5,439 bases of DNA from Escherichia coli (GTDB taxonomy: Bacteria; Pseudomonadota; Gammaproteobacteria; Enterobacterales; Enterobacteriaceae). Location of the stretch: assembly GCF_003334785.1 (NCBI RefSeq), contig NZ_QOWV01000044.1. One strand, written 5' to 3'. Shown piece by piece: positions 93 through 5,439 of the stretch (position 1 is its first letter; each line of letters begins with the position of its first letter). The translations under genes and the position numbers were made by a program. Under the pieces are notes generated by a model. The model saw only the letters and a program-made list of their open reading frames with translations, ran no database searches and was not told where the DNA came from.

Positions 93-233
93 CTATAAAC
101 GTTTCCTGGGATGCGCTGAACACGGCATACAGTGAACACCCGGAGTGGTTTTCTGGGCTTGTCTCCGGGGATGAGAATTAATAAATGGATTATGCTGCCA
201 TCAGGCAGTGTGATTGCCGGCAGGGATTTCGTT

Positions 234-425
234 TTATTCTGTTTCTTCCCGGGGTTCGGGTTTGAATTTTCCCAGAAAGTTGTACATCGGTCGCATGCAG
301 GGATGCGGATAGCCGTCCCGCATAAACACCACCCGGGTTTCCTCAACACTGGTCACGGTGACAAGCGCACCATGATCGTCTTTGTATCGCTGATTGACTT
401 TCGGTAATGGAACATCTTCTGACAT
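234..425 (-). CDS. Small hypothetical protein, 63 aa; possibly DUF4222-like
   Basis: ORF with an ATG start at 425 and a TAA stop; an in-frame stop lies 8 codons upstream, so ATG is the only plausible start. No clear Shine-Dalgarno sequence. The translation (MSEDVPLPKVNQRYKDDHGALVTVTSVEETRVVFMRDGYPHPCMRPMYNFLGK...) is compositionally protein-like, with a YKDDHGALVTVT...RDGYPHPC pattern that I recall from small DUF4222-type proteins of enterobacterial islands and prophages. The family assignment is from memory only. The overlapping ORFs 50-349(-) and 132-407(+) are less protein-like. Confidence 0.5.
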   Translation of the reverse strand: MSEDVPLPKVNQRYKDDHGALVTVTSVEETRVVFMRDGYPHPCMRPMYNFLGKFKPEPREETE

Positions 426-1055
426 AAATTTTAGTACGGTAACAGTTAACTAAATTTTCATGTGGTAGCACTGAATCAGGAGACTGCGTTTCCTGATGTG
501 CGCTGTTAATTTTCTGTTTTTACGAAACATTTTCCCCTTCTTCCTGTGTATTTTATTGCGCTCCTCCTTTCATGTCCTTCCCATATCCTGAAACTCACTT
601 AAATGCTGTTGAATCGTCACGCATTGCAATTTTCAATGACTGAAATCAAAAATTGCTACTTTTTAGGCTAACCAACTGTATTAAAAGCATTCAGTGGAAT
701 AATTTTCTGCACTTTTCCATTAATTATGGTTATAAATTTTGCAATGTGCTGTTTTTGCGATATGTGACAGAATAAAGAACTGTTCATTTGTGCTATATCG
801 ATCGATAAATCTGTCATATTGCTGTAGTTCAGATCATTATTCTATAATGATCAAAAATAAGTCAGCTAAAAATTGGCAGATTTATTGCTCAGCATTCTGG
901 TACCGGTTGATGCGGGTAAATACCGGAAGGGCGGTAGCGTGCCATCGCAAAACATGGTGGGAGGTATCGTCAGGAGGCTGGTGATTGTTGGTATGACATG
1001 AATAAAAGGTTTTTCGTTTGACTGGAAAATTATGTTGCAGGAACGAGAGGGCTGA
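426..1055. promoter_or_regulatory. AT-rich non-coding region, likely promoter and silencing region
   Basis: Hand count of 661-780 gives about 30% G+C, against about 50% in a sampled stretch of the helicase gene (2281-2340). The only ORFs here (739-984 plus, 866-1102 minus) are Cys/Ser/Trp-rich and lack ribosome-binding sites. AT-rich tracts of this kind in horizontally acquired DNA are typical H-NS targets (established knowledge); binding is not shown by the sequence. Confidence 0.4.
819..848 (+). promoter_or_regulatory. Candidate sigma70-type promoter (-35 TTGCTG, 18-bp spacer, -10 TATAAT)
   Basis: Seen in sequence: TTGCTG at 819-824 and a perfect TATAAT at 843-848, oriented rightward toward the tpsB remnant and helicase gene. 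AT-rich DNA contains many chance promoter-like hexamers, so this is weak. Confidence 0.15.
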
Positions 1056-1526: not shown

Positions 1527-3305
<1,779 letters not shown>

Positions 3306-3730: not shown

Positions 3731-4804
3731 ATGACTTCTGAAGTGAAACTGAAAACCGGTGGTGACCCCCGGTCATTACCGGATTATGCTGCCCTGCGCG
3801 ATGAAATCAGCAAACTGACCCACCCGGCACGCCCGGATGTGGACTGGCGTTACGTGGAAACGCTCTGCCTGCGTCTGTATGAACACAATGGCGTGGAATT
3901 ACAGACGGCATCCTGGTACACCATCGCCCGGATGCATACAACAGGGTTAAGTGGCCTGAATGAAGGGCTGGCTCTGATTGTGGCGCTGACCCGGCATCAC
4001 TGGTCAGTGATGTGGCCGCTGAATACACACGCCCGGCTGGAAATTATTACCGGTCTGTTCAACCGTCTGCAAAAAACGCTCCGGGCCATGCCACCGGATG
4101 ACCGTGACAACCTGCCCCTGCTGTATCAGACCGAAACATTCCTGAAGGAACTGAGTGACACACTGGCCCGGTACGAACTTAAACAGAGCAGTAAAGTGGC
4201 TTTACCGGAAGCCATGGTGAAGGGATATATCACCCGTCTGGAAAATCAGCCGGTGCAGGGCGAAGCGTCGTCTCCGGTAACCCTTCCGGCTCAGGCACTC
4301 CGGTCTGATGCTCGGGACGTACAGGAACATCAGCCCCTGCCGCACTCCCGTCTGGTGTATGTTGTTTCTGAAACAAAAGCAGGGCCCACACCCTCCCTTC
4401 AAAAATCCCCTCCCACGTTTCTGAAACCGTTTGTGACTGGTGTCTGTGCGGCATTGCTGGCGGTCAGCGTGGCCATTCCGGGATGGCAGTATCTGACACA
4501 GCCATCACCGGCGGAGCAGCAACTCAGGGCGCTGCTGACACCACCACCGGATGTGCTTTCAGCAGACCAGATGACACAGCTCAGCAGAACACCCTCACTG
4601 TTAAATCATGCGTCAGAGTGGATAACCCTTTCCGGTCAGCAGATAACGCGACTGACAGAATTACCCCCGGCATATAACCTGCAGCGCAGTGCGCAGTTGC
4701 TGCAGCAACTGATGGTACTTTTCCCCGACAATCGTAAGCGTAAACTGACCGCCGTATGTAGCCATCAGACGAGAATTGGTAACTTAGACGCCCATCTGAT
4801 ATAG
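3731..4804 (+). CDS. Type VI secretion-associated ImpA_N-domain membrane protein (VasL/TssA-like); 3' end apparently replaced by IS66-family terminal sequence
   Basis: ORF of 357 aa. The N-terminal roughly 130 aa (GGDPRSLPDYAALRDEISKLTHPARPDVDWRYVETLCLRLYEHNGVELQTASWYTIARMHTTGLSGLNEGLALIVALTRHHWSVMWP) fit the ImpA N-terminal domain pattern of TssA/VasL proteins, as recalled. A single predicted transmembrane segment FLKPFVTGVCAALLAVSVAIPGW lies at about 4418-4486, consistent with VasL-like topology. The last 23 codons (from about 4733) are encoded by sequence starting with GTAAGCG, which I interpret as the IS66-family terminal inverted repeat, so the native C-terminus is probably lost. No strong Shine-Dalgarno sequence precedes the ATG. 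Confidence 0.55.
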   Translation: MTSEVKLKTGGDPRSLPDYAALRDEISKLTHPARPDVDWRYVETLCLRLYEHNGVELQTASWYTIARMHTTGLSGLNEGLALIVALTRHHWSVMWPLNTHARLEIITGLFNRLQKTLRAMPPDDRDNLPLLYQTETFLKELSDTLARYELKQSSKVALPEAMVKGYITRLENQPVQGEASSPVTLPAQALRSDARDVQEHQPLPHSRLVYVVSETKAGPTPSLQKSPPTFLKPFVTGVCAALLAVSVAIPGWQYLTQPSPAEQQLRALLTPPPDVLSADQMTQLSRTPSLLNHASEWITLSGQQITRLTELPPAYNLQRSAQLLQQLMVLFPDNRKRKLTAVCSHQTRIGNLDAHLI

Positions 4805-4818
4805 ACGGACATCTAAGT

Positions 4819-5244
4819 ATGGAATTACAGGACTGGCGAAAAGAACCTCGTAAAAACTATTCGAATGAATTCAAACTTCGTATGGTGGAACTGGCATCAC
4901 AACCTGGAGCTTGTGTTGCACAGATTGCACGTGAAAATGGCGTCAATGATAATGTTATTTTCAAATGGCTCAGGCTCTGGCAGAACGAAGGGCGTGTTTC
5001 GCGGCGTCTTCCGGTAACGACCTCTTCTGACACTGGCGTTGAATTATTACCTGTAGAAATAACGCCGGATGAGCAGAAAGAACCTGTGGCGGCCATTGCG
5101 CCGTCTTTATCCACTTCCACTCAGACCAGAGTCAGTGCCAGTTCCTGCAAGGTGGAATTCCGTCACGGTAACATGACGCTGGAAAATCCATCGCCAGAGC
5201 TGCTCACAGTGTTGATCCGTGAACTGACCGGGAGGGGAAGATGA
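4819..5244 (+). CDS. tnpA: IS66-family accessory protein OrfA (TnpA), 141 aa
   Basis: Translation MELQDWRKEPRKNYSNEFKLRMVELASQPGACVAQIARENGVNDNVIFKWLRLWQNEGR... matches my recollection of IS66/ISEc8-type orf1 proteins, which carry a helix-turn-helix-like N-terminal region. The stop overlaps the orfB start. Confidence 0.85.
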   Translation: MELQDWRKEPRKNYSNEFKLRMVELASQPGACVAQIARENGVNDNVIFKWLRLWQNEGRVSRRLPVTTSSDTGVELLPVEITPDEQKEPVAAIAPSLSTSTQTRVSASSCKVEFRHGNMTLENPSPELLTVLIRELTGRGR

Positions 5245-5439
5245 TCTCACTCCCATCAGGTACCCGTATCTGGCTCGTTGCCGGCGTTACCGATATGCGT
5301 AAATCCTTCAACGGACTGGGAGAACAGGTACAACATGTGCTGAATGATAATCCCTTCTCCGGTCACCCGGAGCAACACCTCCGCCCCTTCCGGGGTATCC
5401 TGCAGGCGGATGCGTTCACAGGTTACGACAGGTTGTTCA
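5241..5439 (+). CDS. tnpB: IS66-family OrfB (TnpB) N-terminus, partial at window edge; apparently fused in-frame to a transposase (TnpC)-like segment
   Basis: Translation MISLPSGTRIWLVAGVTDMRKSFNGLGEQVQHVLNDNPFSGH matches the IS66 orfB N-terminus as I recall it. The following residues PEQHLRPFRGILQADAFTGYDRLF do not match the expected continuation (LF.FRGRRGD...), and instead resemble the G.LQ.DGY.GY motif region of IS66 DDE transposases. The ORF is open to the window end. Confidence 0.6.
   Translation, partial: MISLPSGTRIWLVAGVTDMRKSFNGLGEQVQHVLNDNPFSGHPEQHLRPFRGILQADAFTGYDRLF

Follow-up and report, generated by a model that had tools for sequence, protein, structure and literature searches.

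The open reading frame (ORF) at 234..425 on the minus strand of a 5,439-nucleotide stretch of Escherichia coli DNA (contig NZ_QOWV01000044.1 of assembly GCF_003334785.1, analysed at full length and referred to here as the window) can be regarded with near certainty as a real and already catalogued gene. It belongs to a known family, DUF4222, and to the class of ECs_5415 of E. coli O157:H7. Its 63-residue product was classed as a short paralogue, and not an orthologue, of the regulator RgdR. Homology and a predicted fold led us to the tentative proposal of an adaptor role, in which the protein would modulate transcription by binding another protein and would not itself recognise DNA. This mechanism was given somewhat less than an even chance of being correct.

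The ORF starts with the ATG at position 425, the earliest start available downstream of an in-frame TAG, and its translation is MSEDVPLPKVNQRYKDDHGALVTVTSVEETRVVFMRDGYPHPCMRPMYNFLGKFKPEPREETE. Both core motifs quoted in the first-pass annotation, which had been made from the sequence of the window, were found in this 63-amino-acid protein. The acidic tail it had described reads EPREETE, and an isoelectric point (pI) of 5.63 and a net charge of -2.3 were computed. The suggestion of DUF4222 was borne out by a Pfam search, in which PF13973 matched with an E value of 2.3e-23 and 81.9 bits, residues 6-57 corresponding to model positions 1-52 of 53. The protein also matched PHROG 1343 (E 6e-13) and PHROG 285 (E 3e-10), both function-unknown families. 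A search of NCBIfam returned no family for the protein, and none of the PADLOC defence models matched it. An identical protein is present in RefSeq as WP_001287884.1 ('DUF4222 domain-containing protein') from E. coli strains TW10722 and 300709.

The gene is under purifying selection, with ratios of nonsynonymous to synonymous substitution rates (dN/dS) of 0.06-0.2. Thirteen of the 14 nucleotide differences between the window and the CFT073 allele fall on third codon positions (dS 0.32, dN 0.02, dN/dS 0.06). The Citrobacter orthologue, which is 79% identical, gave a dN/dS of 0.19 and has kept the start, the length and the acidic tail. The ORFs that overlap the gene (50-349 minus, 132-407 plus and 343-471 minus) had no comparable coding support. 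Missing homologs and poor coding statistics had been named at the outset as grounds for giving up the gene; the searches instead returned 70 close homologues, in addition to a 50-cluster family in the Enterobacterales, and the overlapping frames were left unsupported. Decay of the gene is seen locally without being general. The databases contain many alleles that are frameshifted, fused or cut (P0006, P0007, P0052, P0062-64), and one strain, in which the neighbouring genes are pseudogenised, has an allele with five non-synonymous changes versus one synonymous change. The gene was nevertheless intact in the great majority of the 1449 complete genomes that carry it.

In an alignment of 38 family sequences the residues D16, G19, V32, R36, G38, Y39, C43 and F50 were invariant or at least 90% conserved, and all of them are present in the window protein, as is the core pattern D-x-x-G, R-[DE]-G-Y, P-C and F to which they belong. 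The usual length of intact aligned members was about 56-80 residues. ECs_5415 was listed among the 63-residue 'RgdR truncates' by Flockhart et al. (2012; PMC3378721, Table S2). Given its full DUF4222 domain and a length within the range usual for intact members, the 63-residue form is best described as a complete domain, and the label 'truncate' as misleading.

Proteins of this kind had been said to recur in enterobacterial prophages and islands, and relatives were indeed found at satellite, lambdoid prophage and island loci. Distant members occur in the AlpA-led early operons of satellites resembling P4 or phage-inducible chromosomal islands (PICIs), directly upstream of the primase gene. Others belong to lambdoid prophages, where they lie between antiterminator Q and the lysis genes, and further ones are beside an AraC-type regulator or adjoining a Tn3 insertion. 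One 63-residue homologue is part of an operon with the order int - AlpA - Bro-N - DUF4222 - Ash - DUF927 primase, in which stop and start codons overlap. Island copies adjoin Hha, helix-turn-helix (HTH), PerC and ProQ genes. Such surroundings are characteristic of small regulators and of the 'morons' that mobile elements carry. A tblastn search of 50,697 phage records gave one weak match, to a Serratia phage, so this subfamily is uncommon among sequenced free phages. Inspection of the representative matches led to the rejection of three large repeat proteins (P0074, P0078 and P0101) as repeat or low-complexity artefacts.

The fold of the protein was predicted with AlphaFold2 from the 38-sequence alignment. 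The model had a mean pLDDT (predicted local distance difference test score) of 87, with strands at residues 13-15, 21-27, 31-36 and 42-46 and a helix at 47-53. The fold class is predicted, with good support, to be a small SH3/Tudor-like barrel with the short helix as a cap. The top 50 matches listed from AFDB50 were DUF4222 proteins or unnamed Enterobacterales prophage proteins, with template modelling (TM) scores of 0.7-0.94. The best structural matches, with modest scores, were RNA-polymerase-binding Tudor and KOW domains; the matches included the C-terminal domains (CTDs) of repair helicases, CarD, CdnL, the polymerase-interacting domain (RID) of Mfd and the KOW domain of Spt5/NusG. Many unrelated SH3/Tudor barrels scored almost equally against the model, and the Tudor/KOW resemblance was not significant in Foldseek. 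Sequence and profile searches of the PDB gave no match up to E 10, and hhalign against the CTD of E. coli UvrD gave a probability of 0.2%, that is, no signal. The domains of UvrD/PcrA, CarD/CdnL, Mfd and NusG/Spt5 are parts of larger proteins, whereas the window protein is free-standing and has an additional C-terminal helix relative to them. On the predicted model, the relation to these polymerase-interacting Tudor-like domains is one of resemblance and not of membership.

The proposed mechanism draws on RgdR, the one DUF4222 protein that has been studied, which according to a review is ECs1581 of O island 51 (OI-51) and has a DUF4222 domain. RgdR activates the LEE1 promoter of the enterocyte effacement locus (LEE) and type III secretion, and it represses motility (Flockhart et al. 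2012, PMC3378721). Its DNA binding was weak and non-specific, and its authors proposed a cofactor role (PMC3378721). The first-pass annotation had called the function unknown; this does not hold for the whole family, as RgdR regulates type III secretion and motility. In the proposed mechanism the DUF4222 barrel would bind a protein partner, which could be RNA polymerase, a nucleoid-associated protein or a regulatory protein. This contact with the transcription machinery would alter transcription, and no DNA sequence would be recognised by the adaptor. Such a mode of action fits the behaviour of RgdR, with LEE1 transcription going up, motility going down and DNA being bound weakly and non-specifically. 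The short form is acidic and has neither the basic tails, the RGD motif nor the K35 of RgdR, and it therefore probably makes no DNA contact at all. With these features absent, its target range likely differs from that of RgdR, or it may compete with RgdR for the same partner.

Several observations weigh against this proposal. No purine-rich Shine-Dalgarno sequence is present within 20 nucleotides 5' of the start (...GTTACCGTACTAAAATTT-ATG). Sigma-70-like sites upstream of the gene were no more numerous than in shuffled sequence, and no convincing promoter was found there, so that the gene is only presumed to be expressed. No published experiments on any 63-residue member were found, and the sole paper that names them (PMC3378721) left them unassayed. 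The residues shown to affect the activity of RgdR, R20 and K35, are V10 and T25 in the window protein. RgdR could also have a different primary role, in the satellite life cycle, and act on the LEE only as a by-product of it. Taken as a whole, gene identity and adaptor mechanism together, the explanation was still thought somewhat more likely to fail than to hold. A bolder and unlikely extension of it, built on the model and on analogy, takes DUF4222 for a free-standing Tudor-like module that would dock on RNA polymerase as the UvrD/PcrA CTD or CarD does. The acidic, tail-less form would then tune horizontally acquired AT-rich operons, including that of the adjoining sci1-type promoter. If true, such docking would explain how RgdR activates a promoter without specific DNA binding.

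Of 5426 complete E. coli genomes, 1449 (27%) carried the gene together with about 440 nucleotides upstream, on the chromosome and nearly always as a single copy. The carriers include CFT073, O157:H7, O111, O145 and O104:H4. Coverage of the gene plus the region 426-799 was at least 80% in 1377 genomes. The 3' side of the gene is constant and consists of an ECs1377-family protein and a 77-residue ECs1378-type protein, encoded convergently with the DUF4222 gene; the latter neighbour had no Pfam or NCBIfam match. The block downstream of the gene is 92-99% conserved between alleles. The 5' side becomes variable past about window position 865. There, 203 E. coli genomes and likewise Citrobacter sp. 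TSA-1 have tssB-tssC-tssK-tssL of a sci1-type type VI secretion system as the divergent neighbour; the remaining 5' neighbours are a gene or remnant of a two-partner-secretion transporter, insertion sequences and assorted defence genes.

The AT-rich 5' region of the gene (426..799, minus strand) travels together with it and must house its promoter and leader. The GC content between about 400 and 900 is 0.31-0.39, versus about 0.5 in the flanks. At least two allele classes of region 426-799 can be told apart, with identities to the window of about 97% and about 78%. Compared with the type-VI-linked locus L006, the coding sequence was 99.5% identical and the 440 nucleotides upstream (426-865) were 78.8% identical. 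This abrupt change of divergence at the start codon indicates a recombination boundary near the gene start. The only consensus match to a sigma-70-like promoter on the strand of the gene is a candidate at 550..578 (minus), with AGGACA, a spacer of 17 nucleotides and TAAAAT; the other allele class shows partial conservation of its hexamers. The predicted fold of the leader RNA, with a z score of -0.9, was no different from that of shuffled sequence. A small upstream ORF, MFRKNRKLTAHIRKRSLLIQCYHMKI, at 450-530 (minus) has 26 codons, a pI of 11.6 and a strong Shine-Dalgarno sequence, and ends 24 nucleotides before the DUF4222 start. In P0052-type proteins (182 contigs) a deletion of 75 nucleotides between two TCAG repeats has joined the MFRKNRKLTAHIRKRSLLIQCYHMKI peptide in frame to the DUF4222 core. 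A leader peptide or an ancestral N-terminus was considered for this ORF and rejected, as the ATG or the frame is lost in the type-VI-linked alleles and the ORF is not conserved in Citrobacter. It was therefore not counted as a gene.

Next to this region, at 800..852 on the plus strand, lies a sci1-type promoter switch, which reads away from the DUF4222 gene and is a neighbouring element, not a part of the gene. Three of the six GATC sites of the window fall here, at 800, 832 and 849, and span 53 nucleotides. Their contexts are ATCGATCGAT, TCAGATC and TGATCA, which are cut by BspDI, Hpy188I and BclI, respectively. The hexamers TTGCTG (819-824) and TATAAT (843-848) are present, with GATC-I directly after the latter, and the block contains a Fur-box-like palindrome, GATCATTAT-TCT-ATAATGATC. 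In the text description by Brunet et al. (2011), the sci1 promoter of enteroaggregative E. coli has three GATC sites over 53 nucleotides, which were probed with BspDI, Hpy188I and BclI. GATC-I is located there immediately 3' of the -10 element and within the fur1 box, with GATC-II and GATC-III on either side of the -35 element (Brunet et al. 2011). Matching this published description, the divergent promoter of the AT-rich block is an intact copy of the sci1-type Fur/Dam switch. Its core is conserved as far as Citrobacter, and the homology of the window to type-VI-linked loci stops at about 865, just past the promoter. In the window the promoter reads into an ops element and then into a decayed two-partner-secretion transporter gene. 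The first-pass annotation had taken the AT-rich block for a putative divergent promoter zone shared with the helicase locus; the block is AT-rich and a promoter does lie in it, but this is of the sci1 type and does not lead directly into the helicase.

The adaptor proposal was weighed against four other explanations. Rather unlikely, though the likeliest of the four, is a primary role of DUF4222 proteins in satellite and prophage replication or induction, where a primase, a helicase or a host factor of replication or repair might, for instance, be the target; in that case the island copy would be a carried-over passenger without a dedicated role in host regulation. In Sakai Sp7/CP-933C the RgdR gene and the start of the primase gene overlap, a 63-residue homologue belongs to the DUF927 primase operon, every analysed E. 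coli PICI encodes RgdR according to the PICI paper, and repair-helicase CTDs are among the best structural matches. The island copy is, however, solitary, on the strand opposite to its neighbours and far from replication genes, and purifying selection still acts on it. Further close relatives are found in lambdoid prophages at the late 'moron' position and not in the replication modules, and the effects of RgdR on host promoters were reproducible (PMC3378721). Improbable to a greater degree is that the protein is a local regulator which, alongside Fur and Dam, modulates the sci1-type promoter or whichever cargo operon has captured it. The back-to-back arrangement with tssB-tssC-tssK-tssL in the 203 E. 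coli genomes and Citrobacter sp. TSA-1 would agree with such a role, as would the Fur/GATC promoter core kept in the window and conserved to Citrobacter and the regulation of another secretion system by the paralogue RgdR. This reading is weakened because about 86% of the loci have lost tssB and still keep an intact DUF4222 gene under purifying selection; neither the CFT073 locus nor the window has the secretion system, and nearly all differences between their alleles are synonymous. Closely related members are also found in prophages without nearby type VI genes, and the available parts of the sci1 literature invoke Fur and Dam and leave the DUF4222 gene unmentioned.

Very little probability was given to the view that the gene is a non-functional remnant, that is, a decayed 'truncate' of the longer RgdR-type gene of 99 residues that is kept by hitch-hiking. 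The term itself comes from the literature (PMC3378721), and the missing Shine-Dalgarno sequence, the many damaged database alleles and the one allele with an excess of non-synonymous changes among pseudogenised neighbours would suit it. It is difficult to reconcile with the end-to-end coverage of the Pfam model, with a norm of about 56-80 residues among intact members, with the start, length and acidic tail kept in Citrobacter, with the dN/dS of 0.06-0.2 or with an intact gene in most of the 1449 carriers. An in-silico marker screen for Shiga toxin-producing E. coli (STEC) finally raised the idea of a secreted or outer-membrane protein, since a table in PMC12945212 lists WP_001470661.1 (63 amino acids, DUF4222) as 'outer membrane' and STEC-enriched. 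This can be given almost no credence: WP_001470661.1 is not the window protein, whose N-terminus MSEDVPLPKV has no hydrophobic signal sequence and which is hydrophilic and acidic; the model is that of a soluble beta-barrel, and RgdR acts inside the cell.

The first-pass annotation had cautioned against a functional link to the helicase of the window, and this caution was justified. The gene was present in 1449 genomes and the helicase in 1048 of the 5426 complete E. coli genomes, at varying cargo positions; these genome counts are coverage classes, and adjacency of gene and helicase was judged on individually sampled loci. The helicase matched the PADLOC model C3a187, a candidate system of NERD plus UvrD, with an E value of 7e-138. 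In O104:H4 it follows a truncated tssC. CFT073 and four further sampled loci have other neighbours and carried no helicase in the sampled flank, and the O157:H7 flank carries only a UvrD/REP helicase-like pseudogene. The helicase is thus best read from these loci as variable cargo, and nothing links the DUF4222 gene to it.

At 1527-1574 the window lacks 2113 bp of TW10722, and the overlap at the junction (1566-1574) is 9 bp long. A gene for a toxin-activating lysine-acyltransferase and a GIY-YIG nuclease gene lie in the absent segment. As a result of this deletion the helicase ORF begins with acyltransferase codons: the 592-residue ORF (1527-3305, plus) consists of about the first 13 of them fused in frame to the NERD-UvrD helicase, which has 581 residues in TW10722.

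Between the promoter switch and the helicase lies a decayed transporter gene of the ShlB/FhaC/HecB type (1018-1517, plus), in which a signal-peptide-like start is followed directly by a C-terminal fragment annotated as a pseudogene in RefSeq. Upstream of this two-partner-secretion remnant an exact match to the operon polarity suppressor (ops) element, GGCGGTAGCGTG, was found at 930-941 (plus). In an Rfam scan of 1-1600 the only hit was a sub-threshold JUMPstart (RF01707) around ops, with 21.3 bits versus a gathering score of 35. Each of the six other two-partner-type loci examined has the ops element, and none of the five type VI loci does. This restriction to two-partner-type loci suggests that the two-partner-secretion operon is subject to RfaH-dependent antitermination.

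A further ORF of 357 residues (3731-4804, plus) combines an ImpA/TssA-type N-terminus with a VasL-like part and runs into an IS66-family element that has its left end near 4734. The ORF seems to be left over from the type VI secretion cluster. Its part at 4367-4525 has 77% protein identity to the C-terminal part of the O157 'POTRA domain' protein, which points to a mosaic. The IS66-family element at the right end of the window (4819-5439) has an internal deletion relative to TW10722, with a jump from 19489 to 20692 of L001 and a 4-bp overlap at 5364-5367. No complete E. coli genome in the collection carries the whole window collinearly, and TW10722 covers it in four pieces.

At the left end, positions 1-93 are the right end of an IS66-family element. 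This element cuts the ECs1378-type gene, of which a 3' remnant is left at 95..181 (plus), annotated in TW10722 by RefSeq as a pseudogene remnant; the gene is intact in 300709, CFT073, O157 and Sakai. Between the convergent stop codons a hairpin, CTGCC-TGAT-GGCAG, was read directly from the sequence at 195..208 (minus). The fold of 165-240 (-13.3 kcal/mol, z -1.16) was not significant versus shuffled sequence, and the hairpin would be a weak terminator at best.

The finding adds little as it stands. The gene is annotated in RefSeq, its Pfam family is named and the 63-residue class is listed in the RgdR paper. The short form is, on the other hand, carried under purifying selection by about a quarter of complete E. 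coli genomes, O157:H7, O104:H4 and CFT073 included, and its predicted Tudor/SH3-like fold offers a concrete idea of how RgdR-family proteins could affect transcription without sequence-specific DNA binding. The survival of an intact sci1 switch after replacement of the type VI genes may prove more useful in practice, to those working on type VI regulation and on the evolution of islands.

Among known proteins ECs_5415 of O157:H7 Sakai is very similar to the window protein. It has the same length and 61 of 63 identical residues (97%), with GALV at positions 19-22 in both and two conservative substitutions, V23L and R36Q. The loci also correspond, with ECs1377/ECs1378-type neighbours and an AT-rich upstream block in common. 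They differ in the ECs1378-type neighbour, which is cut by the IS66-family element in the window and intact in Sakai, and in the cargo past the promoter, which consists of the two-partner-secretion remnant and the NERD-UvrD helicase in the window and of IS629, a HecB-like gene and a helicase pseudogene in Sakai.

The sequence of RgdR was also retrieved, and its computed molecular weight of 11,703 and pI of 10.09 equalled the published values, which confirmed that it was the correct one. BLASTP gave 36% identity to the window protein over 58 amino acids of the DUF4222 core (E 3e-12). The near-invariant D, G, R-x-G-Y, C and F are common to both proteins, and both genes are borne on horizontally acquired elements. 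RgdR has 99 residues, a pI of 10.1 and a net charge of +12, while the window protein has 63 residues, a pI of 5.6 and a net charge of -2. The criteria for ECs1581 orthologues, namely about 99 residues, more than 77% homology over 99 and a pI of about 10, therefore do not fit the window protein. The RGD motif of RgdR (20-22) is aligned with V10-N11-Q12, and K35 corresponds to T25. RgdR possesses basic N- and C-terminal extensions, including a basic C-terminal helix, which the window protein lacks. The RgdR gene (L003 18305-18604) overlaps the primase start in the early operon of a satellite (Sp7/CP-933C), whereas the window gene is solitary on the island backbone.
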